Shown here: in pieces, positions 46,734 through 64,000 of the stretch | Position numbering within the stretch: the stretch's first letter is position 1 | Layout: the number at the start of each line of letters is the position of its first letter | From: Polyangiales bacterium | GTDB taxonomy: Bacteria; Myxococcota_A; Polyangia; Polyangiales; Polyangiaceae | NCBI GenBank assembly: GCA_038231275.1 | Contig: JBBRLQ010000002.1 | Span: forward strand, 96,001 to 160,000 | Reading direction: 5' to 3' | DNA length: 64,000 bases | The notes under the pieces: generated by a model | Told to the model about the DNA's origin: nothing | Seen by the model: only the letters and a program-made list of their open reading frames with translations | Database searches by the model: none | Translations under genes and position numbers: made by a program

Positions 46734-46749
46734 GGTGCCGAGCGCGCGG

Positions 46750-47376: not shown

Positions 47377-47411
47377 GAGAGGCGCGCATCGCAACCCGCG
47401 TGCCGTGCCGG

Positions 47412-47873: not shown

Positions 47874-48055
47874 GTCCCCCCGTCTCTCTTCACGAGTCGT
47901 GCCGCGGTGCAACCCCGCGGTCAGAGGAGGCGCGTTCGATCGGTGTGACGCGTTGTGACGAGCCTGTAACGCCCCCCACGAACGAACGATCCACCACCCG
48001 GCTCGCGGCGCGCGCTTTGTCGGGAGGCGCAGGTGTGGCATCCTCCGCCCGTTTC

Positions 48056-48128
48056 GCCCCCGTAGCTCAGTGGATAGAGCAGCGGTTTCCTAAACCGTTG
48101 GTCGCAAGTTCGATTCCTGCCGGGGGCG
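48056..48128 (+). tRNA. tRNA-Arg(CCT)
   Basis: Acceptor stem GCCCCCG/CGGGGGC, D-arm GCTC-AGTGGATA-GAGC, anticodon loop TTCCTAA, T-loop TTCGATT; CCA not encoded; one A-C mismatch in the T stem. Confidence 0.95.
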
Positions 48129-48270
48129 CCTCATCGTTGTTGGTGGTCGGGACTGGCGAGAATGATCGCGACCGACCACCAGCTCGCCATTGGCGTTCGC
48201 CTTCCGTGCGCCGCGGTGACCTGGTCAACTCGGGTCCCTCGCCAGAGGGGATTTCGGCCTGAAGCCGCAG

Positions 48271-48552
48271 CTACGGCGCCGGTCGCGAGAGGTCCTGCCA
48301 CTCGCCCGTCGCGATCGCGACGCACTGGGATCCCCCCGGCGAGGTCATGCAGTGGTAGCGCACCCAACGACCGCAGCCCTGAAAGGTGAGGCTCGCGTGT
48401 CGGTACTGCGTGACCTTCTCACGCGGACACCCCAAGTCCGACGGCGCGTGGTCCTCGGCGATGTGAAACTCCCGCAGAGGAGACGCGCACGCGAAAAGAG
48501 GGGCGACGACCAGTGTCGTCGCGAACCAGGCCCGGTGGATCGACATCGCCAT
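48271..48552 (-). CDS. Small hypothetical lipoprotein
   Basis: LFAC lipobox; DLGCP and GCGR..RY.C pattern. Confidence 0.6.
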   Translation of the reverse strand: MAMSIHRAWFATTLVVAPLFACASPLREFHIAEDHAPSDLGCPREKVTQYRHASLTFQGCGRWVRYHCMTSPGGSQCVAIATGEWQDLSRPAP

Positions 48553-48579
48553 CGACGCGAGAGCTTACCCGCGCATCCG

Positions 48580-49866
48580 TCACTGCGGCACGACGATCGG
48601 CACGTGGTACGCGCCAATGCCGTTCGGCACGCCGTTCCCGTGATACGTGAACCCGCCGTCGGCGTCGCGCAGGATGGGGGCGATGAGCGGGAAATTGATG
48701 CCATAGCTCGCGAGCATCAGCTTGCCGTCGGGATCGTACTCGAGGGACGTCCCGCCGACCCCGTTGACGAGCGGGTGCGCCACCGGCGCGGCGAGGCCAC
48801 CGGTCAGGCCGTCGAGCGGGAACGTGTAGAGCGTCGACGCCGAGGTGCTGCCGACGTAGAGCACAGCGCCGCCCGGATCGATGGCCAACCCCTCGATCGA
48901 CGCGGTGGTCACCGATTGTGAGCCGAAGACGTTCATCGCGCCCGTCGCGTCATACGAGACGGCATAGACGACGGTGCCATTCGGGCCGGTCACGTACAAG
49001 ACCGGCTTCGTCGGATGATGAACGACCACCGACGGCCCCCCGGGAGTGCTGACCGTCAGGCGGTTCGAGAGCGCGCCGGTGCCCGGGTCCACCTTGAACG
49101 ACGACAGCGAGTCCGAGTTCACGTTCGTGACGAAGAGGAGATCCCCCGCCGGCGAGAGCACCGTGCCCCGCGGCCAGACGAGGGTGGTCGCCGTCGCCGC
49201 CTGCGCGGTGAGCGTGCCGTCCGCCGCGATGTCGTAGACGGTGATGCTCTTGCCGTTGAAGTTGGAGACGTACAGGTGCTTTCCGGCGGGATCGGCGACG
49301 AGGTACGTCGGCGTAGCGCCCGCGGTGGCCTGCGTGCCGAGGGGCGTGAGGGCGCCCGACTTCGTATCGACCGCGTACGCGGAGACCGACTGGTCGCCGT
49401 TGTTCGCCGCGTAGAGAAATTTCGAGTTCGGCGTCGTCGCGCAGGCGACCGGGCCCTTGCCCGCGGGAACGCTGCCCTGAAATCCCGCGTTGACCGCGTC
49501 GGTGTCGAAAGGTGCGATCGCGCCGGTCGTGGGATCGAAGGCGTACCCGAACACGCCGCTCTGCGGCCCGCCGTCGGGCAGTGGCGTCTCGAGCGTGGCG
49601 CACACGTACGCGAAGTGAACGGGGCCGGCGTCGAACGTCGTCGCGCCGTCGCCGGAGTCCGTCACCACGGAGCCGTCGGGCGCGCCGCCGTCGCCCGGCA
49701 GCGTGCCGTCGGGGAGGGCGCCGTCCAAGGGAGGAGCGTTGACGTCGTAGCCGCCGCCGTCGAAGGACTGCGCGCCCGGCGGGCTCGCGTCGGAGGTGAC
49801 GCAGGCGAACGGAGCGAGCGCCGTCCAGACGAGCACGAGGGCACTCCAGGCGTACGAGGTTCGCAT
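48580..49866 (-). CDS. Lactonase-family beta-propeller lipoprotein
   Basis: Repeated blades P.GKxLY.xN...SVxxYxVD..SGAL. Confidence 0.8.
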   Translation of the reverse strand: MRTSYAWSALVLVWTALAPFACVTSDASPPGAQSFDGGGYDVNAPPLDGALPDGTLPGDGGAPDGSVVTDSGDGATTFDAGPVHFAYVCATLETPLPDGGPQSGVFGYAFDPTTGAIAPFDTDAVNAGFQGSVPAGKGPVACATTPNSKFLYAANNGDQSVSAYAVDTKSGALTPLGTQATAGATPTYLVADPAGKHLYVSNFNGKSITVYDIAADGTLTAQAATATTLVWPRGTVLSPAGDLLFVTNVNSDSLSSFKVDPGTGALSNRLTVSTPGGPSVVVHHPTKPVLYVTGPNGTVVYAVSYDATGAMNVFGSQSVTTASIEGLAIDPGGAVLYVGSTSASTLYTFPLDGLTGGLAAPVAHPLVNGVGGTSLEYDPDGKLMLASYGINFPLIAPILRDADGGFTYHGNGVPNGIGAYHVPIVVPQ

Positions 49867-50093
49867 TCGCCGAGCAGCATGCGGCCGCCCGCGTGCCTAC
49901 GCAAGCGCACGCGTGTCACCCGTTTGGGGGCAGGAGGAAGAGAACATTCGACCGCGGACAACCGTCCGCCATGGAGCGGCTTCTTGTCCTCGCGATGGAC
50001 GCGCTGCCGTCACCCGAATCTGGAATTTTTCTCGTCGCGCGGTATTTCTCCGGTGAAACTCACTGCGCACGCGACGTGCAAGAGAGCCGCGTC

Positions 50094-51527
50094 ATGGAAC
50101 CTCGGGCCCGTCTCGCTCGCGTCGTGTCGCTCGGCGCCGCCGCGCTCGCCGTCGTCGCCCTATCCTCGGCGTGCGGGAGCGCGCACGGCGAGGGATTTCA
50201 CGACGACCCGCCCGCAACACCCGCCGCGAGCGGAGCGGACGCCGCTGGAGGCGCCGACGGATCGACGCCGCTCCTCGGCCCCGCGATCGAAGGCGGAGCG
50301 CCCGGCTGCGGCACGACGATCAGCGGCACCGTGTACGATCCCGCCGGACGCAATCCGCTCTACGGCGTCGCGGTCTACGTCCCCAAGTCGACGCCGGCCG
50401 CGTTGCCGTCCGGCGCCGCGTGCAACTCGTGCAGCGAGCTCTACACCGGCGAGCCCGTCGCCGCCGCAATCACCGACGCGGCCGGCAAGTTCACGATGAA
50501 CGGCGTGCCTGGCAGCGGCAAGACACCGCTCGTGCTCCAAGTCGGCAAGTGGCGCAAGCAGCTCGTCGTCGACGTCACCGCGTGCAAGGACAACCCGCTG
50601 CCTGATCGCTCGCTCACGCTCCCCAAGAACCACACCGAAGGGGACATCCCGAACATTGCGATCACCACCGGCCAGGCCGACACGCTCGAGTGCTTGCTCC
50701 GTCGCGTCGGCATCGACGCCGCCGAGTACGTGCCGGGTGCCGGCGGCGCGGGACGCATCCATATCTTCCAGGGGACGGGGTGGACGGCAGGCCCAGGTCC
50801 GAACACGCAGCCGGCCGCGCCCGATCCGATGACCGTCCTCTGGGACGCATCCGCGCACATGATGCCGTACGACATGGTGCTGATGTCGTGCCTCGGCGAC
50901 GAGCCCGGGCCTGCCCTCGTCGGCCTGAGCGACACCAATCGGCAGGCGCTCTACGACTACGCGGCGGCGGGCGGGCGCGTGTTCGCGTCGCATTTTCACT
51001 ACGCGTGGTTCAACGCGGGGCCGTTCGGCGGCGCGAACCTCGCGTCGTGGAGCGCCGGCGCCAACAACATCGGAACCGTGAACGCCTCGATCGCCGCGAC
51101 CCTCCCCAACGGCCAGCCGTTCCCGAAGGGCATCGCGTTGAAGGCGTGGCTCGGCAACGTGGGCGCGCTCCAAGGCGGCGAGCTCACCATCCAGGAAGCG
51201 CGGCGCAACGCGACAGTGAGCGCGGCGAACCCCGCGTCGCAGCCGTGGATCGTCGCCGACACCGGCCCGACGCAGTACCTCTCCTTCGACACCCCGATCG
51301 GCGCCGCGCCTGACAAGGTTTGCGGGCGCGTCGTCTTCAGCGATCTGCACGTCGGCGGCGCCTCCGGCGACTACGGCGGAAATCCCAAGGGCGCGACGAC
51401 GCCGGCCGGATGCGCCGCGAACGATCTCTCCCCGCAGGAGAAGGCGCTCGAGTTCATGCTGTTCGATCTGTCGTCGTGCGTCACCCCGAACAGCGTCCCG
51501 CCCCCGCCGCCGCCAGTGGTGAAGTGA
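50094..51527 (+). CDS. Lipoprotein with carboxypeptidase-regulatory-like domain
   Basis: SSAC lipobox, ISGTVYDPAG..PL, TDAAGKF and QEKALEFMLFDL. Confidence 0.7.
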   Translation: MEPRARLARVVSLGAAALAVVALSSACGSAHGEGFHDDPPATPAASGADAAGGADGSTPLLGPAIEGGAPGCGTTISGTVYDPAGRNPLYGVAVYVPKSTPAALPSGAACNSCSELYTGEPVAAAITDAAGKFTMNGVPGSGKTPLVLQVGKWRKQLVVDVTACKDNPLPDRSLTLPKNHTEGDIPNIAITTGQADTLECLLRRVGIDAAEYVPGAGGAGRIHIFQGTGWTAGPGPNTQPAAPDPMTVLWDASAHMMPYDMVLMSCLGDEPGPALVGLSDTNRQALYDYAAAGGRVFASHFHYAWFNAGPFGGANLASWSAGANNIGTVNASIAATLPNGQPFPKGIALKAWLGNVGALQGGELTIQEARRNATVSAANPASQPWIVADTGPTQYLSFDTPIGAAPDKVCGRVVFSDLHVGGASGDYGGNPKGATTPAGCAANDLSPQEKALEFMLFDLSSCVTPNSVPPPPPPVVK

Positions 51528-51547
51528 GACTCGCGCGATAGGACTCT

Positions 51548-51763
51548 CTAAAGGCGCACGTCGATCGGCACGGCGCGGCGCAGCTCGATCAGCCAACGCT
51601 TCATCTCGCGATCGACGACGGTCTCGATGGCGCGGTCGAACATGACCCTCCTGACCTCCTCGAAGGCCGGCATGGGCGCTCCCGCGGTGAGCTGGCGGAC
51701 GGCCTGCGCGTACGCCGCGCGCGCGTCTCGCTCCGTGACTTGCACCCTTCCGCGAACGCGCAG
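51548..51763 (-). pseudogene. 3' fragment resembling a SurA-like chaperone C-terminus
   Basis: LRVRGRVQVTERD...RWLIELRRAVPIDVRL*; N-terminal part absent. Confidence 0.45.
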
Positions 51764-51765
51764 CG

Positions 51766-51879
51766 TGCAATGGCCCCGCCGGCTACACGTGCCACTGCTC
51801 CTCCGTGGACGCCGGCGACGGTGGCGGCGGTGGCCAGTGGTCCTGCGTCGGAACCGGCGGCGCGTGCCAGGTCAACTGA
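51766..51879 (+). pseudogene. 3' fragment of a Cys-rich lipoprotein gene
   Basis: CNGPAGYTCHCSSVDAGDGGGGGQWSCVGTGGACQVN*; no start codon after the in-frame TGA at 51736. Confidence 0.5.
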
Positions 51880-51961
51880 AGGGCATGGCGTCTTCGCGGG
51901 CGCTCGCCGATAGTTTCTGACCTGAGCGCGCGACGGCCGAGGTGACGGGTATCCTTGTTCG

Positions 51962-53497
51962 ATGCGGCACGCCAAGCTCGCTCTTGCGCTCGCGGTCCTC
52001 TTCGCGCTCGTCGCGTGGGCGTGCGGAGGAGACTCGCCGTCGTCGTCCGTGACCGCGCCCGATGCATCCATTCAGGACGCGTCGGGCGATGGCCCGGTGG
52101 CGCCCGGCACCGACGGCTCCTCGCCCACGGATGGTGGCGCGTCCGATGGATCGCGTGAGAGCAGCGCGCCGGTGACGTCGACCTCGCAGCTGCCCGATCC
52201 CAACGTGACGTTCTTCGCGCTGTCGAAGGCGTTCAAGCCCAACAAGCGCGTCTTTGCACACTACATGCTTTGCTGCGGATCCTTCGGCGTGACCGTCGAC
52301 GACTTCGCGAACGAGGTCACGCTGGCGCAAGCGATGGGCATCGACGGCTTCGCGCTCAACGCGGGCGGGTGGAGCGCTGCAAACTACAAGGCCGACGCCG
52401 CCAACATGTTCGCGGCGGCGAAAACACTGGGCACCGACTTCAAGCTCTTCTTCTCGGCGGACCTGTGCTGCAACCTGCCGGCGGCCGACATCGTCGACAT
52501 GATGACGACGTACGCGGCGCACGCCAACTACCTTCGCGAGGGCACGAAGGCGGTCTTGTCGGCGTGGGCGGGCGGAAGCCACACGGCCGCGAGCGTCGAC
52601 TTCTGGCAGAACCAGGTCATCGGCGCAGCGAAGACGGCGGGCGTCGACGTCTTCTTCATTCCATTTTTCTATCCGGAGCCCGTGTCCGAGGTGCCGGCAC
52701 CCGCGCTCGTGCAGGACAACGTCGCATTCTGGAAGGATCACGTCGACGGGATGTTCTATTTCGGCGCGTCGGGTCTTCCCTTCGGCGATCCGTCGCTCGT
52801 CACGGCGAACGCCGCGTACGCGCAGGCGCTCGCGGCAGCCGGGAAGAAGGCGATGGCGAGCTACAGCGCCGCGTATTGGGGCGCGGTCCAGGGCGATCGT
52901 CGGTACTTCGAGTACCAGGGCGGCCTCGGGACCGAGACGCAATGGAAGGCACTCGTCGCCGCCGATCCCGATTGGGTCGAGATCTCGACGTGGAACGATC
53001 TCAACGAGTCGTACATGATGCCGATGGACGATTTTCAGAAGCACCGCGACTGGGGCATGCCGCTCGGCTTCTACAAACCTCACTACGGCTACGCCGAGCT
53101 CGTTCGGTATTACATACAGTGGTTCAAGACCGGCATCGTCCCGACGCTCACGCGCGACAGCATCTTCTACGCCTACCGCACGCAGCCGAAGAACTTGGTG
53201 CCGACGGCTCAGGACGGCGGCGTCGCGTTCATCGGTGACGTGCAGGACGACATCTACCTCACCATCCCTCTCCTCGCCCCCGCGGAGCTGCGCGTCACGA
53301 CGGGCGGCCAGGTCGTCACCGTTCCCCTCCCCGCCGGGATGAACCAGAAGGCGGTGCCCTTCAACGTCGGCGCGCAGTCGTTCGAGCTATGGCGCGGCGG
53401 CGCGAAGATCAACGGGATCGCCGGCGAGCCTGTCGTGGACAAGGGTGCGCGCTACGATTTCTGGAGCACGACGGGCTTCGTCGAGACCACGCCGTAG
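51962..53497 (+). CDS. Glycoside hydrolase family 71 (endo-alpha-1,3-glucanase) lipoprotein
   Basis: VFAHYM, GIDGFALN, FKLFFSAD and VEISTWNDLNES motifs; AWAC lipobox. Confidence 0.85.
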   Translation: MRHAKLALALAVLFALVAWACGGDSPSSSVTAPDASIQDASGDGPVAPGTDGSSPTDGGASDGSRESSAPVTSTSQLPDPNVTFFALSKAFKPNKRVFAHYMLCCGSFGVTVDDFANEVTLAQAMGIDGFALNAGGWSAANYKADAANMFAAAKTLGTDFKLFFSADLCCNLPAADIVDMMTTYAAHANYLREGTKAVLSAWAGGSHTAASVDFWQNQVIGAAKTAGVDVFFIPFFYPEPVSEVPAPALVQDNVAFWKDHVDGMFYFGASGLPFGDPSLVTANAAYAQALAAAGKKAMASYSAAYWGAVQGDRRYFEYQGGLGTETQWKALVAADPDWVEISTWNDLNESYMMPMDDFQKHRDWGMPLGFYKPHYGYAELVRYYIQWFKTGIVPTLTRDSIFYAYRTQPKNLVPTAQDGGVAFIGDVQDDIYLTIPLLAPAELRVTTGGQVVTVPLPAGMNQKAVPFNVGAQSFELWRGGAKINGIAGEPVVDKGARYDFWSTTGFVETTP

Positions 53498-53600
53498 ACT
53501 TTCGAGCACGTCTTGCGCAGGTCAGGCGAGCTCCGAGAATCGACTGAGCAGACCATGCTCGACCCACCACCACGAACGCGGGGTTGGCGCGGGCGTCTTC

Positions 53601-53615
53601 GGTACGGTGATTGCT
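53601..53615 (+). promoter_or_regulatory. Possible sigma54 promoter
   Basis: GGTAC-GGTGA-TTGCT (GG-N10-GC) just upstream of ATG 53628. Confidence 0.3.
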
Positions 53616-53627
53616 CCACGGGTGAGC

Positions 53628-54395
53628 ATGGACCTCCACGCCAACGCGCTCATCGCCGCCATCCTTTGCGTCACCGGGTGCACGACCGCCACGACCACCT
53701 CCGCCACGGGAGGCGACGGCGGAGCGCCCACGGACGGAGCGACAGCGGGGGGCGACGGAGGCGCGGCGGGGGCGAGCGGCGCGCTCACATGCGGCGCGAT
53801 CCTCGATTGCTTGGGGGCGTGCGCGAGCAGCGACGCGGCCTGCCCCGACGCATGCGTCGCGAAGGGATCGCCGCCGGCGAAGGACGCCGTCACGAAGCTC
53901 GCGACCTGCTCCAACACCAACGCGTGCGCCGACGCGCCGTGCCTCCAGAGCAAATGCAGCGCGGAGCTGCAAGCTTGCGTCGCATCGGCATCGACGGGAG
54001 GAACGCCGCTCGACAGCGGCGTCGCGCCCGCGGGGAACGTGCCCGCGGAGCTCGTGGGCAAGTGGTACAGCTATGGCGTCCTCTTCGAGTTCGGCGCCGA
54101 CGGCTCGGCCTCACGGAGCACCAACGTGTCGACCGGAGGCTGCACCTCCACGTCGCTCGAGAAGGGCACGGCGGTCGTAGCCGGCACGACGCTGACGACG
54201 TACTTCACCAGCGGCATCATCAAACTTTGCGGCTCGTCGTCGGGCGATCCCTACCAGCCGACGACGACGAGCTACACCTACCGCGTCGAGACGGTCGACG
54301 TCGGGATCGTCCTTCGGCTGTCGAAGCAGAACTGCCAGTACACCGACCAGGCGAGCATCGATTTCTACTGCACCGACGGGTACGACAAGAAATGA
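53628..54395 (+). CDS. Cys-rich hypothetical lipoprotein
   Basis: VTGC lipobox, CxxxxxC..C helical domain, PAELVGKW lipocalin-like start. Confidence 0.65.
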   Translation: MDLHANALIAAILCVTGCTTATTTSATGGDGGAPTDGATAGGDGGAAGASGALTCGAILDCLGACASSDAACPDACVAKGSPPAKDAVTKLATCSNTNACADAPCLQSKCSAELQACVASASTGGTPLDSGVAPAGNVPAELVGKWYSYGVLFEFGADGSASRSTNVSTGGCTSTSLEKGTAVVAGTTLTTYFTSGIIKLCGSSSGDPYQPTTTSYTYRVETVDVGIVLRLSKQNCQYTDQASIDFYCTDGYDKK

Positions 54396-54396
54396 G

Positions 54397-55392
54397 TCAC
54401 CCCGCCGTCGGGCACCCGCCGCCGCACGTCTTCACGCCGTAGCAGTCCGACGTGCAGCTCGGGCCGCCACACTCGCAGTCCTGCTTGCAGACTTGATCGG
54501 CGAGCGCAGGATCCGAACCGCAGGAGACCTCGCACTGCGAGTAGACGCTGGGAATGACGGCGTGGTGGATGCAGCAGACGGTGCCGGCGGGACAATCGGC
54601 GGTCTCGTCGCACTTGAGGGAGACGTTGACCGGCTTGAGCGTGCAGCCGTCGCCGGAGGGAGAGCACGCTCCGTTGCAGCACTGCTCCGCCTGCGCGGCG
54701 CACGGGCCAGACGGCGGGCAGTCGATCCCGGCGGTGAAAGGGCCACAAGGGCCCGCGTCGACGCGTGTGGTCGTCGCGTCACCGTCCGATGCGCCGTCGC
54801 GTCCGCCGACGTCGGCGCGGGCGTCCGTCAGCGAACCGGGAGGCGGAGGGGTCGGAGTCCCCGGCGGCGGCGCGAGGTTCGAGCACGCCGGGTCGACGCA
54901 CGCCGCCGAGACGCAGCCGCCCGCGAGGCACGTGTACTCGGGCTCGCATCGCACGCCGGCACAGTCCTGCCGGAGCTCGATGGGGAGGAGGAGCGGCGTG
55001 TGCGCGACGAAGCGAAGACGACGGCGGGCGACGACGCACCCCGCGAGGCTGGCGCCAGGCGTGCGAACGGCGCACGCTTCCCGCCCGAGGCCCGCCACGA
55101 TCTCGATCGCGATCTCGGCGCCGCGATCGCCGCTCGGCACGACGACGAGATCGCCGATTTCGCGCGGCGAAGACGGAGCACACGTCGCGGCGGTCGCCCC
55201 CGGCGCACCTTCGAGCGAGGCAAAATCAGGCCCGATCGTGATCGTGGTGGTGCCCGGCTCCTTGGACGCGGCGATCGGTGGACAGCTCGCGAGATCCGTC
55301 GTGAGGACGAGTCGGATCTCCGTCGGATCCCGGCAGCTCGCGACGATCGCGATCGCCCCGAGGAGGGGAAACAGGACCGCCCCTCGCACCAT
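54397..55392 (-). CDS. Cys-rich hypothetical lipoprotein
   Basis: VASC lipobox, TEIRLVLTTD and CVVARRRLRF. Confidence 0.7.
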   Translation of the reverse strand: MVRGAVLFPLLGAIAIVASCRDPTEIRLVLTTDLASCPPIAASKEPGTTTITIGPDFASLEGAPGATAATCAPSSPREIGDLVVVPSGDRGAEIAIEIVAGLGREACAVRTPGASLAGCVVARRRLRFVAHTPLLLPIELRQDCAGVRCEPEYTCLAGGCVSAACVDPACSNLAPPPGTPTPPPPGSLTDARADVGGRDGASDGDATTTRVDAGPCGPFTAGIDCPPSGPCAAQAEQCCNGACSPSGDGCTLKPVNVSLKCDETADCPAGTVCCIHHAVIPSVYSQCEVSCGSDPALADQVCKQDCECGGPSCTSDCYGVKTCGGGCPTAG

Positions 55393-55427
55393 CTGCACTA
55401 CGATACATGGGAGACGCTGGGAGTGCG

Positions 55428-56774
55428 TTACCCCCACCGAATCGTCTCCAACATCCGCATCAGCCGTTCGCCGCGCGCCGGGTCGGATGCCGCGACCCAC
55501 GCGACGAGGCCGCGGAGGTGCCCGCGGAAGTCTTCGTGCCCGCCGCGGTTCTGCGTCGCCGGGCCGAGGCGAGCGCAGTTGTAGAGCGTCGCTTTGAGGC
55601 GGTCCACGGCTTCGCGGGAGACTCGCGGGCGCTCGTTCACGACGAGGCCAGTGACGGTCTGCCGGCCGCCGGCGGGCATGATGCGCGTCTTGCGATGGTT
55701 CACGACGAAGCCCTCTTCGAACACGATCGCGCCGACGCGCGCAGCGAATCGGAGCGCACCACGCGCGAAGTCGGCGCTGCCCGAGAAGACGAGATCGTCC
55801 GCGTACCGCGTGTACGCCGCGCCGGCTGCTGCGGCGGCCGCCGACAAGCGAACGTCGAGACCAAACGCCACGAGGTTGGCGAGCGCGGGCGACGTCGGCG
55901 ATCCCTGCGGCAAGTGACGCGCGCGTGCGAGGGCCTCGGCGCGTCGCCACGCGTCGATGTCCGCGCGCGCCGCGTACGGCCCGAGGGCTCCGCGCCGCGC
56001 GATCGCGTCGACCGGCGTGCGGTTGGTGCAGAGGCGCGAGAGGACGAACGCCACCTCCTCTGGATAGCCCGCGGTTCGAAAGACCGCCGCTACGCGTGCC
56101 GCGGTGATCGTGAGGAAGAAGTCCGCCAGATCGATGCGCATCACTACCGCGCGACCCGCATGCGCCGCCGCGTGGGTGCGGGCCGAGCGCCCGCGACGAA
56201 ATCCGTGAACCGCGTCGTGGGGAGGGATGACGTCGAGCACCTCGCGCAAGATGGCGCGCTGGATCGCCTTCATCCGCGGCTTCGGCGCTTCGAGCAAGCG
56301 CACGCCTCCGCTTCCGTCGGCGCGCTTCGAGACCCAGCGGTACCGGTACTGCCGCAGGGCTTCGCGTTCGACGATTCGCTCGAGACCTCGCGCGTCCGCG
56401 AACCATTCGAGCTCGCCGGCGCGGAGTCCCAGCCACGCCGCCACGTCGCCGTGCGTCGTCAGAACCCGAACGTTCCACCGCGGGCTCCTCATCTCGACGT
56501 GCGGCACGAGCCAAGCACGAACCGTCGGCGCCTCACGCCGCCCACACACCTCGATGAGACGCTTGTCGCCGGCGACGAATCGCGTCAGCTCACGGAGCCG
56601 ACCGCGAGGTGAATTCTGGAACTTCGCGAGGACTCGCGCCGCGACCTTCGACACCCAGGGGAGCGACCCGCCGAGGGCGGTCGCAGCGCGCGCCTTCAGT
56701 CCCGCGCGCGTCCACTCCCCTTCGGCGAGAAATGCTGCCGCAAGGGCGCCGGCCACGTTGACGAGCTCGGCCAT
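55428..56774 (-). CDS. Retron-type reverse transcriptase
   Basis: HGF, region X HAAAH (NAxxH variant), DLADFF, LPQGSPTSP, YTRYADD and region Y QTVTGLVVN; ~100-aa N-terminal extension. Confidence 0.93.
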   Translation of the reverse strand: MAELVNVAGALAAAFLAEGEWTRAGLKARAATALGGSLPWVSKVAARVLAKFQNSPRGRLRELTRFVAGDKRLIEVCGRREAPTVRAWLVPHVEMRSPRWNVRVLTTHGDVAAWLGLRAGELEWFADARGLERIVEREALRQYRYRWVSKRADGSGGVRLLEAPKPRMKAIQRAILREVLDVIPPHDAVHGFRRGRSARTHAAAHAGRAVVMRIDLADFFLTITAARVAAVFRTAGYPEEVAFVLSRLCTNRTPVDAIARRGALGPYAARADIDAWRRAEALARARHLPQGSPTSPALANLVAFGLDVRLSAAAAAAGAAYTRYADDLVFSGSADFARGALRFAARVGAIVFEEGFVVNHRKTRIMPAGGRQTVTGLVVNERPRVSREAVDRLKATLYNCARLGPATQNRGGHEDFRGHLRGLVAWVAASDPARGERLMRMLETIRWG

Positions 56775-56784
56775 CCTTCGTCAA

Positions 56785-56958
56785 CGTGCGGCGGCGAGGC
56801 CCAACCAGACTTGACTGGCGTGCGGAATCGTACGTTCTGCGTACCGCGCCGCACGCGACGAAATGCGGGTCCAATTGCGTTCCCTCGGGGTAACCCCGAG
56901 GAGGATCCGAGCCGTCCGAGACGGTCCCTTCTCCGACTTGAGCCCCCGCCGCCGCACG
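56785..56958 (-). ncRNA. Retron msr-msd non-coding RNA
   Basis: Perfect 12-bp terminal inverted repeat (56785-56796 / 56947-56958), extendable to ~20 bp with G-U pairs and one bulge. Internal hairpins at 56818-56856, 56883-56901 and 56912-56924. Lies directly upstream of the RT. Confidence 0.82.
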
Positions 56959-56992
56959 ACGCGAGACTACACGAAGGCGCCGTCCGCGCGCA

Positions 56993-58546
56993 TCACCCCG
57001 CCTTGTCGCCCTGAAGCTTGCTGTGGTGCCGCCCGTACGTCCCATAGATCACGAAGCCGATCACGAGCCACACGACGAGCCGGATCCACGTGTCCTTCGG
57101 CAGACCGCTCATCACCCACAGGCACGCCACCGCGCCTAGCGGCGCAACGATGTAGAATGCAGGTACCCGGAACGGCCGCACGGCCTTCGGCTGCGTGAAG
57201 CGGAGGATGAAGACGCCCGCGCACACGAGCACGAACGCGAGCAGCGTGCCGATCGACACGAGCTCGCCGACGAGGCTCATCGGAAGGAGACCGCCCGCGA
57301 CGGCGACGAACGCGCCCGTCACGACCGTGGCCTTGTGCGGCGTGCCGAATTTTTTGTGCGCCTGCGAAAACCAAGGGAGAAGGCCGTCTTTGCTCATCGC
57401 ATAGAAGACGCGCGTCTGGCCCATCATCATGACCAGGATGACCGACGTGAGGCCCGACAGCGCACCGAGCTTCACCAGGAACGTGAAGGCCTTCGTCGCG
57501 CCCGGCGACCACTGCCGAAGCTGCACGATGCGATCGATGCCGACCGCGACCGGATCGGACACGCCGAGCTCGTGGTACGGGACGACGCCGGTGAGGACGA
57601 GCGCGACGAGGATGTAGAGGATCGTGCACACGACGAGCGAGCCGAGGATGCCGATCGGCAAATCCCGCGTCGGATTTTTGCATTCCTGCGCCGTCGTCGA
57701 GACCGCGTCGAAGCCGATGTACGCGAAGAAGACGACGCCCGCGCCCGTGAGGACGCCGCCCCAGCCGAAGCTCTGGATCGTCTCGCCGGCGCGCGTGCTC
57801 GGCCCGGCCGGAGGCACGAGCGAGGCGAGGCCGGACGCGGTCGCGTCGCCGACCCAGTTGGCGTGATTGACGACGCTCCATCCGAGCAGGATGAAGGTGA
57901 TGACGATGATGACCTTCACCGCGACGATGAGGTTGTTCACGAACGCCGACTCGCGCATGCCGCGGTAGAGGATCGCGGAAACGAGCACCGCGACGAAGCT
58001 GGCCGGGAGGTTCCACATGCCGTGCGTCGTCGTGCCATTCGCCAGCGTCACGACGTCGCCCCATGGCCCCTGCGTGAGGACGAGGAGGGAGTCGGGGAGC
58101 GTGATGCCGAGCGTCTTGTGGAGGAGCGAGATGAGGTAGCCCGACCACGAGACGGAGACGGTCACAGCGCCGAACGCGTACTCGAGGATGAGATCCCAGC
58201 CGATGATCCAGGCGATGATCTCGCCGAGCGTCGCGTAGGAGTACGCGTAGGCCGAGCCGGCGACCGGGATCATCGCCGCCATCTCCGCGTAGCAGAGGCC
58301 GGCCAGCGCGCAGAGAATGCCGCCGAGGACGAAGCTGTAGACGATGCCAGGGCCCGCGTAATACGCGGCCGCGGTCCCTGTGAGCGAGAAGATGCCAGCG
58401 CCGATAATGGCGCCGATGCCCAGGGCCACCAGGTTGAGGGGGCCGAGGGAGCGCTTGAGCGTGCCGTGCGCCGCGGCCTCGCTGGCGTTCGGATCGTTCG
58501 CTTCGGCGAGCAGCAGAGCGAGCGGCTTCTTCTTGAGGAGGTCCAT
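56993..58546 (-). CDS. APC-family amino-acid permease
   Basis: GIGAIIGAGIF, PVAGSAY.Y, FFAYIGFDAV and VSIGTL; ~12 TM helices. Confidence 0.95.
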   Translation of the reverse strand: MDLLKKKPLALLLAEANDPNASEAAAHGTLKRSLGPLNLVALGIGAIIGAGIFSLTGTAAAYYAGPGIVYSFVLGGILCALAGLCYAEMAAMIPVAGSAYAYSYATLGEIIAWIIGWDLILEYAFGAVTVSVSWSGYLISLLHKTLGITLPDSLLVLTQGPWGDVVTLANGTTTHGMWNLPASFVAVLVSAILYRGMRESAFVNNLIVAVKVIIVITFILLGWSVVNHANWVGDATASGLASLVPPAGPSTRAGETIQSFGWGGVLTGAGVVFFAYIGFDAVSTTAQECKNPTRDLPIGILGSLVVCTILYILVALVLTGVVPYHELGVSDPVAVGIDRIVQLRQWSPGATKAFTFLVKLGALSGLTSVILVMMMGQTRVFYAMSKDGLLPWFSQAHKKFGTPHKATVVTGAFVAVAGGLLPMSLVGELVSIGTLLAFVLVCAGVFILRFTQPKAVRPFRVPAFYIVAPLGAVACLWVMSGLPKDTWIRLVVWLVIGFVIYGTYGRHHSKLQGDKAG

Positions 58547-58661
58547 GGGGTGGCGCCAGCCTACCGCGCCCGCGCCCGCGGGTGCTAATGCGCAAGGAGA
58601 CACCGGCGAGACCGTGCCCGACGCCTTGCGGGCGCCCGGATTTCGCTTCATAAGGGGCCGC

Positions 58662-60428
58662 ATGCGTGGGGGGGTCTTCTTTTTCGCTGCGCTCGCGTTC
58701 GCGGGGCTGGCCGGTCTCGCGGACTGCGTCCCGTCGGACCCGAGCGCGGCGGACGACGCGGCAGCCTCTTCGCAGGATGGCGGCCCCGGCAACGGCGACT
58801 CCGCAGCCCGCGAGGACGCCGCGAGCGACGACGCGACGACGCGACCCGACGGCGACGTCGGAAACGAGGCCGGTGCGAACGACGCTCGCGACGACGCGAC
58901 CCCGGCACGCGACGCCGGCTGCGACGCGCAGGTCCCGACCGACGGCGGGCTCGCGCCGCTCTGCGCCGTCCCCATTCCGCAGCCCACCGGCGGCGACGTG
59001 ATCGACGTCGCCGCGGCCGTGCGCCTCGGCAAGGCGATCTTCTGGGACGTGCAGACGGGCGGCGACGGCAAGCAAGCGTGCGCGTCGTGCCACTTCTCCG
59101 CCGGCGTCGACACGCGCCGACTGAATACGATTCACCCCGGCCCCAACGGCACGTTCGAGAGCGACGGCGTGACCGGCGCGGGGCAGACCGCGACGATCGC
59201 GAACATCGGCAACGACGACCGCGTCGGCGCGCAAGGCGTGATGGCGGCGACGTTCAACGCGATCGCGGGCGACCCCGCCACCGGCACGGACGACTGCACG
59301 CCCGCGCCGGCCGCGCCGTTCGGCACGAACCGCCAGGTGACGCCGCGCAACGCGCCGACCGTCATCGGCGCCGTCTTCTACCGCGATCTGTTCTGGGACG
59401 GCCGCGCGAGCCACGCCTTCAACGGCGTCGATCCATTCGGCGCCACGGGCAACGCGGCCGGGAGCCTCGCGAACGTAGGCGCCGCGGCGCTCGCGTCGCA
59501 AGCGGTCGGGCCGCCGAACAATCCCGTCGAAATGTCGTGCGCCGGTCGGAGCTTCAACGGACCGGGCAGCCTCGCGACGAAGATGCTCGCGCGCCAGCCG
59601 CTCCACTCCCAGAAAGTGAGTCCGAACGACGGCGTGCTGGGCGTCCTGTCGGCGTCGCCGGGAGACGGCCTCGCGTGCAACGGCAGCGCGTGCACCTACC
59701 GGGATCTCGTGGTCGCGGCCTTCGGCGCTTCGCTCGGCGCGCAAGCCGAAGCGCAGTTCTCACGGTTGTGGGGCCAGGCGCTCCTCGCGTACGAAGCGAC
59801 CCTCGTCCCCGACGACACGCCGTTCGATCGCTACCTCGCGGGGAGCGGGTCCGCGCTGACGGCGTCGCAGGTCCAGGGATTGTCGCTCTTCACCGGCAAG
59901 GGCCAGTGCGTTGCGTGCCACGCGGGGCCGGAGCTCAGCGATGCGACGTGGAGCTTCGCGACGCGCAAGGGCCTCGTGAACGAGGACACCGGCGATCAAG
60001 GTTTCCACAACACCGGCGTGCGCCCGGGCGGTCGCTTCCCCGAAGACCTGGGCCGCGCCGACGTAGGGCCCAAAGGCGTCACCTACTCCGTGAGCGCCGC
60101 GCAAGTCGATCGCGGCGCGTTCAAGACGCCGTCGCTCCGCAACGTGAAGCTCACCGCGCCGTATTTCCACAACGGCGGCAAAGCGACCCTCGACGATGTG
60201 CTCGCGTTCTATGCGCGCGGCGGCGACTTCAACAATCCCTCCTCGCGTGTCCGCGCGATCGTCTTCCTGGCGGGCGAGCAGGCGGCGCTCGTGGACTTCC
60301 TGGCGAACGCGCTCACCGACTGCCGCGTCGAGAAGGAGCGGGCGCCGTTCGATCACCCATCGCTCGACGTTCCCAACGGCCCGAGCCTCCCGGCGGTCGG
60401 CGCCGCGGGCGTCGGATCGTGCCCGTAG
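58662..60428 (+). CDS. Di-haem cytochrome c peroxidase / MauG-family protein
   Basis: LGKAIFWD, CASCH, RNAPT, FWDGRA, CVACH and FKTPSLRNV..TAPYFHNG. Confidence 0.9.
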   Translation: MRGGVFFFAALAFAGLAGLADCVPSDPSAADDAAASSQDGGPGNGDSAAREDAASDDATTRPDGDVGNEAGANDARDDATPARDAGCDAQVPTDGGLAPLCAVPIPQPTGGDVIDVAAAVRLGKAIFWDVQTGGDGKQACASCHFSAGVDTRRLNTIHPGPNGTFESDGVTGAGQTATIANIGNDDRVGAQGVMAATFNAIAGDPATGTDDCTPAPAAPFGTNRQVTPRNAPTVIGAVFYRDLFWDGRASHAFNGVDPFGATGNAAGSLANVGAAALASQAVGPPNNPVEMSCAGRSFNGPGSLATKMLARQPLHSQKVSPNDGVLGVLSASPGDGLACNGSACTYRDLVVAAFGASLGAQAEAQFSRLWGQALLAYEATLVPDDTPFDRYLAGSGSALTASQVQGLSLFTGKGQCVACHAGPELSDATWSFATRKGLVNEDTGDQGFHNTGVRPGGRFPEDLGRADVGPKGVTYSVSAAQVDRGAFKTPSLRNVKLTAPYFHNGGKATLDDVLAFYARGGDFNNPSSRVRAIVFLAGEQAALVDFLANALTDCRVEKERAPFDHPSLDVPNGPSLPAVGAAGVGSCP

Positions 60429-60431
60429 ACG

Positions 60432-61286
60432 TCAGCTCGTGAGGGCGCGGCGGGTGAGCCCGAACGACGCGCGCATGACGAGATCGACGAGGCGCGTAGG
60501 GAACAGGCCGACGAGCGCGATCAGCAGCCAGAATCGGCGCGGCGCGACGTAGCGCGTGCACGGACGCCGGGACTCGGCCGCGTGCGTGATCGCGCGGACG
60601 ACCGGGCGCGCGGAGCTCGCGACGAGATCGAAGCTGCGCCGGAGATCGTCGGCGCGCGCGTAGATCGACGCGTAACGCGAATCGGGCAGCTGCTCGCGCG
60701 CGAGCTCGCGAAGCACGCGGTCGCCGAAGCTCGTCTTGATCGTGCCTGGCTCGACGATCGCGACGTCGATCCCGAACGGCTGGAGCTCCATGCGAAGCGC
60801 GTCGGAGAGCGCCTCCAAGGCGTACTTCGTAGCGTGGTACGCGCCGAGCAGCGGCGCCGGGATGCGGCCGGAGACGCTGCTCACGTTGACGACGCGACCG
60901 CTCCGCTTCGCGAACATCGCCGGCAAGAAGGCCCGCGTGACCGCCATCAGACCGAACACGTTCGTGTCGAACTGCGCGCGAAGCGTCGCGTCGGAGAGCT
61001 CCGCGAGCGGCCCCACCGTCGCGTATCCGGCGTTGTTGACGAGGACGTCGAGCCCGCGGCCCTCCGTCCGCTCGCCGACCTGCCGAACGGCCTCGGCGAT
61101 GCTCTCCGCCGATGTCACGTCGAGCGCGAGCGTCTCGAGCGCGAGGCCCGACGCCTCCTGCTCCAGCGCGGCGAGCGCTGCCCGGTCGCGCCCCGTGGCG
61201 AACACACGATGGCCGCGCCGCGCGAGCCAGAGCGCCGTGTCACGGCCGATCCCCGCGGTGGCGCCGGTGATGCGAACGTTCTTCAT
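60432..61286 (-). CDS. Short-chain dehydrogenase/reductase
   Basis: TGATAGIG, NNAGY and YHATK. Confidence 0.93.
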   Translation of the reverse strand: MKNVRITGATAGIGRDTALWLARRGHRVFATGRDRAALAALEQEASGLALETLALDVTSAESIAEAVRQVGERTEGRGLDVLVNNAGYATVGPLAELSDATLRAQFDTNVFGLMAVTRAFLPAMFAKRSGRVVNVSSVSGRIPAPLLGAYHATKYALEALSDALRMELQPFGIDVAIVEPGTIKTSFGDRVLRELAREQLPDSRYASIYARADDLRRSFDLVASSARPVVRAITHAAESRRPCTRYVAPRRFWLLIALVGLFPTRLVDLVMRASFGLTRRALTS

Positions 61287-61376
61287 GATTTTTTCCCCGA
61301 GCTGCGAGCGCTTCGATGCTCGGCGAGGCGTGGCGTTGCGGGATTTCTCGCGGCGAAACGCGCGCTGACTTCCGCC

Positions 61377-62312
61377 TTAGTGGCACTGCGCCGGGTGCGC
61401 GATCTCTTCGAGCTGCACGCACTGGGTGGGGCACCTCTGGGTCGTCGTCACGCCTTGGAAGCATTTCGAGCGCCGCGCACCGTGATCGACACAGCGGTAA
61501 ATCGCGTCGAGCTCCGCCGGGCACACGGTGCCATCCCCCTCGGGCGGCGGAATGTGCACGGCCACGTCGGCGTGGTTGTCGTCGTAGTGGAGCTCCGCGA
61601 TCATCCGATCGGGGTTCACGGTGACCGAAAGCACGTAGTCGCCGGCGGGCACGTCGGTGATGTCGATCCAGTTGCCCTCGGTCGTGTTCACGTACCCGTC
61701 GCCCCACCCGCGATGGAGGCCGGGGTGGTGGCAGTTGGTCTGCATCTTCGGCGTCCACGTGTCGGGCACCGGCGGCGAGCCGAACGGACGCTGCGGAGGG
61801 CGCGGTAGGAGCGAGCGTCCGCCGCCCTGCACGTTGTCCTCGATGCAGAACGACTCCTTGTGCCCCTTGGCCGCCTGCGTGCCGTCGCGCGCCTTGAGCT
61901 CGTAGTCGGCGTAGCCCTTGAAGTGGAAGTGACCGTGGCACGACGCGAACTCGAAGAAGCGCGCGTTGCCCTTCGACGGATCGCCGAGGAACAGATCCTT
62001 GGTGCCCACGTTCGTCACGAACGTCGTGAACCGGAGCAGGCGGCGACGGCCGGACGCGAGGATCGTCCCCTCGGCGACGGAGCACGAGTCTTCGGCGATG
62101 TCGCGCGTCTCGATCACGATGGACGCTTTGACGGTCGGCGCGTCGAGGCGAAGATCCGGACACCGAGCACCGGGCGCGCACACGTCGAACCGCGGCGCGT
62201 CGGTGAGTGCCTCGTCGTCGCTCCCGTCGTAGGCCGGCTGCGCATCTGCGCCGCCGCACGCTTGAATCACGCCCGCAACGGCGACGAAAACGGCGAGTCG
62301 AGCACCACGCAT
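61377..62312 (-). CDS. Lysyl oxidase family lipoprotein
   Basis: RRLLRF, SCHGHFH, GHKESFCIED, GWGDGY, WIDITDVPAGDY and VNP...E..YDDN; IQAC lipobox. Confidence 0.88.
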   Translation of the reverse strand: MRGARLAVFVAVAGVIQACGGADAQPAYDGSDDEALTDAPRFDVCAPGARCPDLRLDAPTVKASIVIETRDIAEDSCSVAEGTILASGRRRLLRFTTFVTNVGTKDLFLGDPSKGNARFFEFASCHGHFHFKGYADYELKARDGTQAAKGHKESFCIEDNVQGGGRSLLPRPPQRPFGSPPVPDTWTPKMQTNCHHPGLHRGWGDGYVNTTEGNWIDITDVPAGDYVLSVTVNPDRMIAELHYDDNHADVAVHIPPPEGDGTVCPAELDAIYRCVDHGARRSKCFQGVTTTQRCPTQCVQLEEIAHPAQCH

Positions 62313-62400
62313 GGCGGTTCATGGTGCCAATGTCATACCAAGTCCTACATCATGTATTTATAGGTACTTAGCGCTCCATTTCGCGAAATATCGACCGCCC

Positions 62401-63114
62401 TTACTGGATCGCTTGCGCACCTGTCGCCCTGCGCGACCCGAGCATGGCGGCGACGAACCAGACCTCGAGGAGCGTGAACGCGATCGCGTTGCCGGCGCCG
62501 ATCCGCTCCGCGCTAGGTCGGATCGCGAGCGGCACGACTGGCGCGACCGAGATCGCGACGAACAGGAGGAGCATGGGAGGAGACAAGAGCGCGAGGGCGC
62601 GACTCCAACGTCCCGTTGCACGAAGCGTCCACGCCCACGCGATCGCAGCGAGCGTGTAGAGCAGCGCCGCCCATCCCGAGGTGAGCGGGAACACGACGTC
62701 CTCGAACGCCAGGAAGGCGGATGCGTCGCGCAGCCTGGCGGCCTCGCGTGCGAGCTCCACGCCGCGCGTCACCAAGAGGAGCTGCGCGCCTTGATCCGGA
62801 ACGATCGCCAGGAGCACGAAGACGAGCTGCGCGATCGCGGCTCGCCGTCCGGGACCCGCCGGCGTGCCGCGGAGCAGCGCGATCGCGAGGACGACGTCGG
62901 ACGCCGCCGTGATCTGCCACCCCAACCATCCAAGTCGATACGACGAGGGCGACGCGGCGACGCGCATCGCGCGATCGAGATCGCCCCCCGCGCCGCCTCC
63001 TCCCGGCAGCATCGGCAGAAGGAACACGAGCATCCCGAGCATCGCGGCCCCGTGCGCGAGGAACGTGAACGCCAAGGCGCGCACGAGCAGCCCATCCCCT
63101 GCGCGACCACTCAC
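62401..63114 (-). CDS. Hypothetical integral membrane protein
   Basis: About 6 hydrophobic segments; GTGA overlap with the upstream SDR. Confidence 0.65.
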   Translation of the reverse strand: MSGRAGDGLLVRALAFTFLAHGAAMLGMLVFLLPMLPGGGGAGGDLDRAMRVAASPSSYRLGWLGWQITAASDVVLAIALLRGTPAGPGRRAAIAQLVFVLLAIVPDQGAQLLLVTRGVELAREAARLRDASAFLAFEDVVFPLTSGWAALLYTLAAIAWAWTLRATGRWSRALALLSPPMLLLFVAISVAPVVPLAIRPSAERIGAGNAIAFTLLEVWFVAAMLGSRRATGAQAIQ

Positions 63115-63932
63115 GTCGCCGCCCGCGGAGACCGGGGTCCGAAGAGGTCACGGCGGTAGTAACGCGGCGTCAGGAAACGCAGCGCCCCTTTCAGGAGGGT
63201 CATCCACGCCAGGTGCGCGCCTGTTCGCCGGTTCTCGAGCAGCCGCCGCGCGAGCCAGGGCGCCACGACGTCCACCGGATCGGCGATGAAGTTGAAGAGC
63301 CGCCGCTGTGAGCGCCACAGCGCCGGATCACCTTGCTCGTAGACCGACACCAAGAGATCCGTGACGACGATTCCCGGGCTGGCGGTGCCGACGACGACGT
63401 CGCGACCTCGTGTCTCGTCGACGAGCGAGCGCGTGAAGTAACGGAGCGCGCGCTTGGTGCTGCCGTAGATCGCCATCCCGCGCTGGCGGGCGCCATCCGC
63501 GCCGAAGCCCTCCATGTTGTAGAGCGAGCCGCTCCCCTGCTTCAGCATTCCCGCGAGCGCGACGCGTGAGCCGTTCATGACGCCGATTAGGTTCGTCGCG
63601 ACGACGGAATGGATTTGCGCGGGCGGCAGCTCGACGAAGGCGCGCTGCGCGTTGCTCGTGCCGGCGTTGTTGACCCAGACGTCGACGCGGCCGAACCGCT
63701 CGATCGCGGCGTCCCAGAGCCGCTCCACATCGTCGTACGCCGCGACGTCACAGCTCTTGCCGAGGATGCGCGCCTCGGGAAATCGCGCGGAGAGCACGCG
63801 AACCGCGTCGCGGACGCCGTCTTCGCCGCGCGCCGAGACGACGACGTTGGCGCCCCTCGTCAGGAGCGAATCGACGAGCCCGAAGCCGAGCCCCTTGGTG
63901 CTCCCGGTCACGACGACTGTCGGCGCGCTCAT
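63111..63932 (-). CDS. Short-chain dehydrogenase/reductase
   Basis: TGSTKGLG, WVNNAG and YGSTK. Confidence 0.92.
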   Translation of the reverse strand: MSAPTVVVTGSTKGLGFGLVDSLLTRGANVVVSARGEDGVRDAVRVLSARFPEARILGKSCDVAAYDDVERLWDAAIERFGRVDVWVNNAGTSNAQRAFVELPPAQIHSVVATNLIGVMNGSRVALAGMLKQGSGSLYNMEGFGADGARQRGMAIYGSTKRALRYFTRSLVDETRGRDVVVGTASPGIVVTDLLVSVYEQGDPALWRSQRRLFNFIADPVDVVAPWLARRLLENRRTGAHLAWMTLLKGALRFLTPRYYRRDLFGPRSPRAAT

Positions 63933-64000
63933 CTCTCGTGTCGCCCCCCCATGCGTCGGCACGAGCGTACCAGCGGCGGAGGAACGAAGGGGGCGGCAAG

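Follow-up and report, generated by a model that had tools for sequence, protein, structure and literature searches.

A probable stand-alone retron without a linked effector gene in a Polyangiales bacterium

Current models of retron function require an effector, and a lineage of reverse transcriptases (RTs) of ~445 amino acids without one is an open problem; a locus in the genome of a Polyangiales bacterium (GenBank assembly GCA_038231275.1) raises the question of what such a cassette is and how it could act. The stretch of DNA analyzed, hereafter the window, comprises 64,000 nucleotides of contig JBBRLQ010000002.1 (positions 96,001 to 160,000 of the forward strand), and coordinates are those of the window unless stated otherwise. 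A first-pass annotation, made from the letters of the window, had described the locus as a complete retron, i.e. a noncoding RNA (ncRNA) followed by an RT gene, with no recognizable effector gene in cis. The profile matches and fold of the RT, a covariance model of the RNA and a comparison of gene neighborhoods across the family bear this description out: the locus is very probably an intact two-part ('stand-alone') retron of a known RT lineage with neither a fused nor an adjacent effector.

The RT gene (55428..56774, minus strand) is an intact open reading frame (ORF) encoding 448 amino acids, for which RVT_1 is the sole Pfam match (1.6e-18). The protein matches 57 PADLOC families, the best 25 of which are all RT models, mostly named for retron types; RT_other scores highest (5.9e-155, 515 bits), followed by RT_outgroup (5.3e-148, 492 bits), which is matched over its full length (residues 10-447 against profile positions 10-407 of 407), and by RT_XIII (5e-94, 314 bits), the remaining retron types scoring lower. 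The hallmarks of retron RTs are an NAxxH motif, the histidine of which is most conserved, a VTG motif, the glycine of which is most conserved, and YxDD (PMC7736814). All three can be followed in an alignment of 39 sequences, i.e. the window RT and 38 of 119 other listed relatives, in which the catalytic YADD is at Y324-D327 (Y324, D326 and D327 invariant), region Y reads 'QTVTGLVVN', so including the VTG (G376 invariant), and region X reads 'THAAAHAG', with HAAAH in place of NAxxH (H205 invariant). The consensus of the family at region X is THAxxHxG, the first residue of the motif being mostly H, not N; the HAAAH sequence is thus a trait of the family. The three motifs picked out in the first-pass annotation therefore fall in invariant or near-invariant columns, and the alignment shows the features of a retron RT at region X, at region Y and at YxDD.

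By sequence and fold the RT belongs with the retron clade. An AlphaFold2 (AF2) model built on the 39-sequence alignment (pLDDT 93.4, pTM 0.86) was compared with known structures using Foldseek, the best 17 listed rows being all retron RTs, of which the RT of Ec86 comes first (7v9x_A; E 3.7e-21, TMt 0.81, 26% identity). A sequence profile search of the PDB returned retron RTs at E values of 8.6e-49 to 1.9e-14, again with the Ec86 RT first (8.6e-49), and both DRT RTs and the RT chains of group II introns at 1.9e-10 or weaker. Two of the latter chains carry the depositor label 'retron-type'.

Directly upstream of the RT gene is a 174-nt msr-msd ncRNA gene (56785..56958, minus strand, counted from the start of a1 to the end of a2), which corresponds to the RNA of ~175 nt, closed by inverted repeats, that had been proposed from the window and which, as described below, covaries across the family. 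The two arms of a ~20-bp inverted repeat close the RNA, these being a1 (56938..56958, minus strand; CGTGCGGCGGCGGGGGCTCAA, as read from the sequence) and a2 (56785..56804, minus strand; TTGGGCCTCGCCGCCGCACG), and its 3' end, i.e. a2, lies 10 nt upstream of the RT ATG at 56774. Between them, in order and all on the minus strand, are G 56937, a variable hairpin, the stem-loop SL2, a linker, a two-step msd hairpin and G 56805. G 56937, directly 3' of a1, is the candidate priming (branching) residue, a role assigned by analogy; G 56805, directly 5' of a2 and opposite the candidate priming G, is where reverse transcription of the template is predicted to begin. SL2 (56883..56901; CCTCGGGG-TTA-CCCCGAGG, with a GGGG/CCCC core) is, by comparison with characterized retrons, likely to be the RT recognition hairpin of the msr. 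The msd hairpin (56820..56854) has an outer stem GTGCGG/CCGCAC and an inner stem GTACG/CGTAC, and is the predicted template for the stem of the multicopy single-stranded DNA (msDNA). The 218 nt from the stop codon of the upstream permease gene to the RT start fold with -112.8 kcal/mol (z = -3.0), and none of 200 shuffles folds as well. An extra GC-rich hairpin (56959-56992, minus strand) is present between the permease stop codon and a1; it could mark the end of the permease transcript, or be part of the retron 5' leader. The TATCGT that the first-pass annotation had read as a -10-like box of the lipoprotein gene was not borne out by a consensus scan of 55200-57300, which gave no promoter-like sites, such a scan saying little for a high-GC genome, and a terminator scan of the same region gave one terminator-like site, within the RT gene, at the chance rate.

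The structure of the RNA can be assessed across the RT family, the loci of which comprise 3 from species genomes, 6 full-length matches in 60 related genomes and 80 from metagenomes. A closing stem was sought in the 76 loci with at least 320 nt upstream of the RT, and 59 of these have one of 10 bp or more, with a span of 120-200 nt and an end no more than 45 nt from the RT start; 51 of the 59 form the seed alignment, eight having been dropped by eye. Selection of the seed by the a1/a2 stem biases that helix only, and the three inner helices, which are free of this selection, also covary. RNAalifold applied to the 51 upstream regions gave a consensus of 32 pairs, 23 of them with compensatory changes, in which 92.9% of cells pair, compared with 40.1-49.6% in controls with the partners displaced by 1-3 columns; changes on both sides of a pair number 217 cells, compared with 44-64 in the slid controls, and the covariation score was reached by none of 500 shuffles. 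Both-side changes occur, among the 51 sequences, in 13 of the 14 pairs of the a1/a2 helix and in 4 of the 5 pairs of each of the msd outer and inner helices. In SL2, G68-G71 and C75-C78 are invariant throughout the seed, pairing in the helix reaches 99.8%, and at pair 93:106 there are 28 sequences with CG and 21 with UA. The sequence of the msd hairpin is itself conserved in the seed alignment.

A covariance model built from the 51-sequence seed, termed R1, matches 85 of the 90 family loci, each of them once only and in every case at a position just upstream of the RT. Of the five loci without a match, four are contigs beginning at the RT gene or within it; the other, L084, appears to be a copy broken by an insertion sequence. 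In the latter (L084:2863-5294) the family RT is N-terminally truncated, its match starting at query residue 102, and the RT is preceded, at a distance of 5 nt, by the end of a DDE transposase gene (DUF772/DDE_Tnp_1), with no R1 match at the locus. The R1 match in the window (56782-56962, 128.3 bits, E 2.4e-22), which is the single match in its own genome, arises by construction, since the window is part of the seed; independent support for the ncRNA thus comes from the 34 non-seed loci. In these, 417 of 447 cells are paired in a1/a2, 267 of 267 in SL2, and 159 of 170 and 166 of 170 in the two msd helices, so that all four helices are 93-100% paired, in an alignment which was fitted to R1 and hence leans towards the structure. 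In the consensus retron ncRNA 'two opposing G residues' are marked (PMC7736814, figure 2 legend). Among the 85 aligned ncRNAs a G following a1 occupies one column in 67, and lies one column later in the window and most of the others, and a G precedes a2 in 83. The ncRNA therefore has the arrangement of a retron RNA, being closed by a1/a2 with a G at each inner end of the closing stem.

The family is widespread. The RT protein search returned at least 4515 relatives at E ≤0.001, among 8000 candidates scored; the 119 other listed relatives have 342-545 amino acids and are 47-76% identical. Named sources include Labilithrix, Planctomycetaceae, Sedimenticolaceae, Asanoa and a Flavobacteriaceae metagenome-assembled genome, and further members are on four Burkholderia replicons (0.9-1.4 Mb) and on a Tsukamurella plasmid. 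In the cultured Burkholderia sp. FXe9 (CP101281.1, 166226-166404; L126:4750-4928) R1 has a match of 75.3 bits to an RNA that is unannotated, 7 nt upstream of a gene annotated as 'reverse transcriptase family protein'. This RNA lies between an 'Osa protein' gene and the RT, and an H-NS family gene follows the RT. A search of a phage collection with the window RT gave one weak partial match (36% identity, 57% coverage).

The question of an effector was addressed by comparing, all against all, the 3023 six-frame ORFs of at least 70 amino acids in the 90 loci, with flanks of up to 5-6 kb. For the 87 loci with a mapped RT start, the downstream sequence extends for at least 1 kb in 59 and at least 3 kb in 38, and the upstream sequence for at least 1 kb in 65 and at least 3 kb in 41. 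Only the RT and its shadow frames are common to the loci; the best other cluster covers 5 of the 90, and none of the window's non-RT ORFs clusters with any ORF of the 90 loci. When ORFs of as few as 25 amino acids were considered, in the 600 nt downstream (79 loci) or at -800 to -185 upstream (73 loci), the best cluster contained 3 loci. Thus, no accessory gene recurs beside the RT family, and no effector conserved beside or fused to the RT was found over the 90 loci. Since the homologues are likewise without a linked effector, the window copy appears to have lost nothing, a point on which the first-pass annotation had left the matter to a comparison of homologue neighborhoods.

The genes that do adjoin the RT are varied. 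In 39 of the 87 loci the gene that follows the RT shares its strand, in 38 it is on the opposite one and in 10 there is none, a random orientation, and the median gap from the upstream gene to the RT start is 242 nt, leaving room for the ncRNA. By Pfam, the 148 immediate neighbors are mostly metabolic or housekeeping genes and are scattered; those that recur are ketol-acid reductoisomerase (4 loci) and NadA, PALP, Dus and MacB/FtsX (2 loci each), as well as PadR and cytidine deaminase (2 loci each, both from the duplicate pair L087/L088), and single cases include UvrC, ribosomal protein L1 and TatC. Few neighbors are of a defence-like or mobile kind, i.e. Uma2 twice, and HNH, PIN, MazE and a transposase once each. 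Three proteins are longer forms of the RT in which the extra part differs each time (none, T2SSE, and HTH_17 with citrate synthase); these are probably gene-call fusions, and no recurrent fusion was found among them.

A region that might stand in for a separate effector is the N-terminal extension of the RT (56475..56774, minus strand; residues 1 to ~100), which is specific to the family and consists of five short helices followed by an extended linker. Its length is kept, and its sequence partly kept, across the 39 aligned relatives, and the E. coli retron RTs found in the PDB profile search align with the window RT only from residue ~138-143 onwards. A model of residues 1-108 alone (45 relatives; pLDDT 90.7) has helices at residues 2-16, 23-34, 39-51, 60-68 and 71-77. 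Comparison of the extension with the PDB using VIA-align gave a best Z of 5.3, to part of a deubiquitylase, then saposin-like bundles at Z ~4, i.e. at noise level for helical bundles; a Pfam scan of the extension gave no match, and the best score in the ESM Atlas, 0.80, is too low for a lead. On the basis of the model, the extension would be a five-helix bundle, found throughout the family, with no enzyme-like fold match and no mark of an effector, which disfavors the earlier suggestion that the extension supplies the output of the system.

How might such a cassette act? By analogy with characterized retrons, a single transcript would carry the msr-msd RNA (56958-56785, minus strand) followed by the RT gene (56774-55428), the two being presumed to be co-transcribed. 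Pairing of a1 with a2 would close the structure around the variable hairpin, SL2 and the msd hairpin, and the RT would bind the msr hairpins. The 2'-OH of G 56937 would then prime reverse transcription, with the RNA being copied from G 56805 back through the msd hairpin (56854-56820), so giving a branched msDNA of perhaps ~50-80 nt. A census assayed retrons 'from each RT clade' in E. coli, with RT-DNA output being high in clades 2, 9 and 10, almost absent in clades 3 and 4, and lying between these levels elsewhere (PMC10849725); this wording implies that members of RT clade 11, to which the present lineage can be linked as discussed below, do make DNA. In the available text of the literature on clade 11 retrons no experiment on clade 11 was found, and the literature on effector-less or actinobacterial retrons and on a type XIV gave nothing on function; the view that the function of the locus is undescribed thus still holds.

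The RT, its private N-terminal domain and the msd sequence are conserved across phyla despite there being no effector. Because the RT and the msd sequence are so conserved, and because the cassette sits among housekeeping genes, we would favor a mechanism in which the RT-msDNA particle acts via an unlinked partner or via the RT's own N-terminal helical domain. The alternative that survives best is that there is a dedicated effector, encoded elsewhere in the genome, and that the RT-msDNA restrains this unlinked toxin or enzyme in the way that tripartite retrons restrain a neighbor. It is a serious, if minority, possibility: the strong constraint on the RT and ncRNA across phyla implies a function needing an output, the 90 loci contain no candidate in cis, and the sequence of the msd hairpin is conserved as if it were read by a conserved partner. 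Against it, no candidate emerged from the window's own genome (94% complete), in which the SWIM_XIII model has no match and the HEAT-ARM_XIII model, which also responds in 7 of 14 control genomes, has weak, generic matches of no more than 58.8 bits; further, the occurrence of the bare cassette across phyla is hard to square with an unlinked, lineage-specific gene.

A more speculative proposal, which we regard as rather unlikely, is that the functional unit is the RT-msDNA particle alone, there being no dedicated effector anywhere. The five-helix N-terminal domain and the msd hairpin, the conservation of which is unusual, might then together bind or titrate a conserved host or phage protein that handles nucleic acids, or the particle might have a domesticated role other than in defence. 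If correct, a self-contained particle would explain how a bare cassette moves between phyla under strong constraint, and why it is sited among housekeeping genes, not in defence islands.

Very improbable, by comparison, is the proposal that the locus is a degenerate type XIII (Mx162-like) retron which has lost its SWIM and HEAT/ARM genes. Myxobacterial Mx65, Mx162 and Sa163 were the comparison set of the first-pass annotation; these are, however, type XIII retrons, belonging to RT clade 10 and partnered by SWIM and HEAT/ARM genes (PMC7736814, Table 1), the members of the type being Retron-Mxa1 (Mx162), Retron-Mxa2 (Mx65), Retron-Sau1 (Sa163) and Retron-Nex2 (Ne144), and they prove to be of another clade from the window RT. 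There are likenesses, in that type XIII is the nearest typed RT clade, RT_XIII being the third PADLOC model, the RTs of both kinds have an N-terminal extension of ~90-100 amino acids, and both occur in related bacteria. Indeed, canonical type XIII loci are present in relatives of the same order, as at L117, where HEAT-ARM_XIII, SWIM_XIII and RT genes stand in a row. The RT of this locus, however, scores 553 bits on RT_XIII, 330 on RT_other and 316 on RT_outgroup, an order reversed compared with that of the window RT, which scores ~200 bits higher on RT_other and RT_outgroup than on RT_XIII; for control type XIII RTs, RT_XIII is the top model, at 553 and 517 bits. In a BLASTP comparison the window RT is 38% identical to the type XIII RT over residues 88-445, the N-terminal ~87 residues being unaligned, and region X is NAAAH in the type XIII RT and HAAAH in the window RT. 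The ncRNA family also differs, as R1 has no match in the 12 loci with weaker RT matches (L011-L022), the RTs of two of which were typed using PADLOC, with RT_XIII as best model, whereas the same bare cassette with its own ncRNA is present in 85 of the 90 relatives. Neither gene flanking the retron in the window matches a SWIM or HEAT/ARM partner in PADLOC or Pfam; thus, neither the best RT profile nor the adjacent genes are those of type XIII.

Another locus encountered in this work, L116 (L116:4550-8013; genome G030, contig C18), encodes a 626-residue RT with RT_XIII as its best model (517 bits) and with ~200 extra N-terminal residues. The RT gene follows, on the same strand and after a gap of 68 nt, that for a 504-residue protein kinase (PADLOC PD-T4-6, 1.8e-84), and the 8 ORFs scanned there include no SWIM or HEAT-ARM match; the locus is possibly a type XIII variant linked to a kinase.

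The genes on either side of the retron in the window are as had been reported, i.e. an amino-acid permease upstream of the ncRNA (AA_permease_2, 2.5e-52) and a Cys-rich, lipoprotein-like ORF downstream (54397-55392, minus strand; 331 amino acids, with a lipobox-like 'IVASC'). The latter could in principle be the effector of an undescribed tripartite type, since it is on the same strand, with 35 nt between the RT stop codon and its start; this we consider very improbable. It has no Pfam, PADLOC or NCBIfam match, consistent with the earlier view that it is not a known retron toxin or partner, and no homologue is near the RT in the other 89 family loci. Its orthologues (64% and 62% identity) in two genomes of the same genus, G001 and G002 (95% and 83% complete), in which searches gave no RT match, are in other gene contexts, as is that of the permease in G001; the lipoprotein thus exists apart from the retron and is a bystander. 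Moreover, its family is multi-copy, with 4 matches in its own genome, i.e. 3 further paralogues, 4 in G001 and 7 in G002 (E ≤1e-5), and on general grounds a cytoplasmic RT-msDNA would be unable to restrain a lipoprotein that is exported from the cytoplasm. The G001 permease is 91% identical as protein, and 85% identical as DNA over 1554 bp, but window positions 46000-64000 have no detectable similarity to G001 on either side of it; local gene order has therefore been heavily rearranged between the two genomes. When a retron-free junction was sought in G001 and G002, synteny was found to end at single genes, leaving no clean empty site. Further neighbors in the window are a GH71 hydrolase, a second Cys-rich ORF (53445-54395, plus strand), which is convergent with the lipoprotein ORF and has no Pfam family, a di-haem cytochrome c peroxidase and a short-chain dehydrogenase.

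Upstream ncRNAs are found with DRT2, DRT9 and other defence RTs as well, and there are weak NCBIfam matches of the window RT to Drt2 and group II RTs, but a non-retron system, i.e. one of the DRT/UG class or a group II intron remnant, is scarcely credible given that these matches trail those to retrons by 30 to 40 orders of magnitude, that the RT has the VTG and xAxxH motifs of retrons, and that the ncRNA has the retron layout, closed by a1/a2 with opposing G residues and abutting the RT start.

The assignment of the locus to a stand-alone retron lineage has precedents. Stand-alone (msr-msd)-RT cassettes have been described in RT clade 11 (Mestre 2020; PMC7736814), and SPIRE 2026 has clade 11 profiles, split by the msr/msd models OutgroupA and OutgroupB (PMC13712802). 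Of these, clade11-A (n = 71) is mainly from Pseudomonadota, Actinomycetota and Acidobacteriota, and clade11-B has n = 39; for both, Table 1 of that paper has '-' as 'Top accessory module' and the rating 'Heterogeneous/low priority'. Hence, of the claim that the window holds an effector-less retron, the absence of an effector stands, while the novelty attached to it does not, such cassettes having already been published (PMC7736814; PMC13712802); the locus is a further member of a catalogued, functionally unsolved lineage, the novelty of which had been overstated. What the present analysis adds is a covariance-supported map of the ncRNA, with the candidate priming G, the opposing G, the near-invariant hairpin and the msd hairpin, the finding over 90 loci that no gene down to 25 amino acids is linked to the RT, and the presence of the RT with an unannotated ncRNA in cultured Burkholderia replicons.

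Several points weigh against the assignment, or against parts of it. With the RT, no NCBIfam retron model reaches its curated cut-off, the highest score, that of retron_St85_RT, being 176 bits where 235 are required, and an Rfam scan found no retron family for the ncRNA, the sole match at E ≤1 being a chance one to mir-48 at 61785. In PADLOC RT_outgroup ranks second, below RT_other, and that the RT_outgroup lineage is RT clade 11 we infer from the shared name 'Outgroup' in PMC13712802. The spread of the RT family over many phyla agrees with clade11-A of PMC13712802, but not with another published statement. The limited flanks at the RT loci leave room for a partner gene further away, and the neighboring genes were called using a rough, home-made heuristic based on third-position GC content (GC3), which is error-prone. 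The priming residue, the range of the template and the size of the msDNA are carried over from characterized retrons and so should be regarded as predictions, and the sequencing runs that match the stretch are DNA contigs only, with no RNA run listed.

Comparison with other well-studied retrons helps to place the locus. The RT of Retron-Eco1 (Ec86; 7v9x/7v9u) is both the best structural and the best PDB sequence match, but Retron-Eco1 is of type II-A3, with a nucleoside deoxyribosyltransferase-like effector such as the window locus does not have, and its RT, of 320 residues, has no counterpart of residues 1 to ~100 of the window RT. Retron-Eco5 (Ec107) and the stand-alone branch of RT clade 2 resemble the window locus in comprising an ncRNA and an RT without an effector (PMC7736814). 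By contrast with the window RT, however, they are of a distant RT clade, RT_Ec107-like scoring 185 bits compared with 515 bits for the top model, and their RTs have ~300 residues, without the N-terminal domain of ~100 residues; they are, moreover, reported mostly from Bacillota in host-associated environments (PMC13712802). The closest likeness is to the cassettes of clade 11, from which the locus differs in none of the features tested, membership being taken from the name of the profile hidden Markov model together with the architecture: the locus shares with these cassettes a full-length match to RT_outgroup, an ncRNA directly upstream of the RT, the lack of a recurrent accessory gene and a spread over phyla like that of clade11-A.

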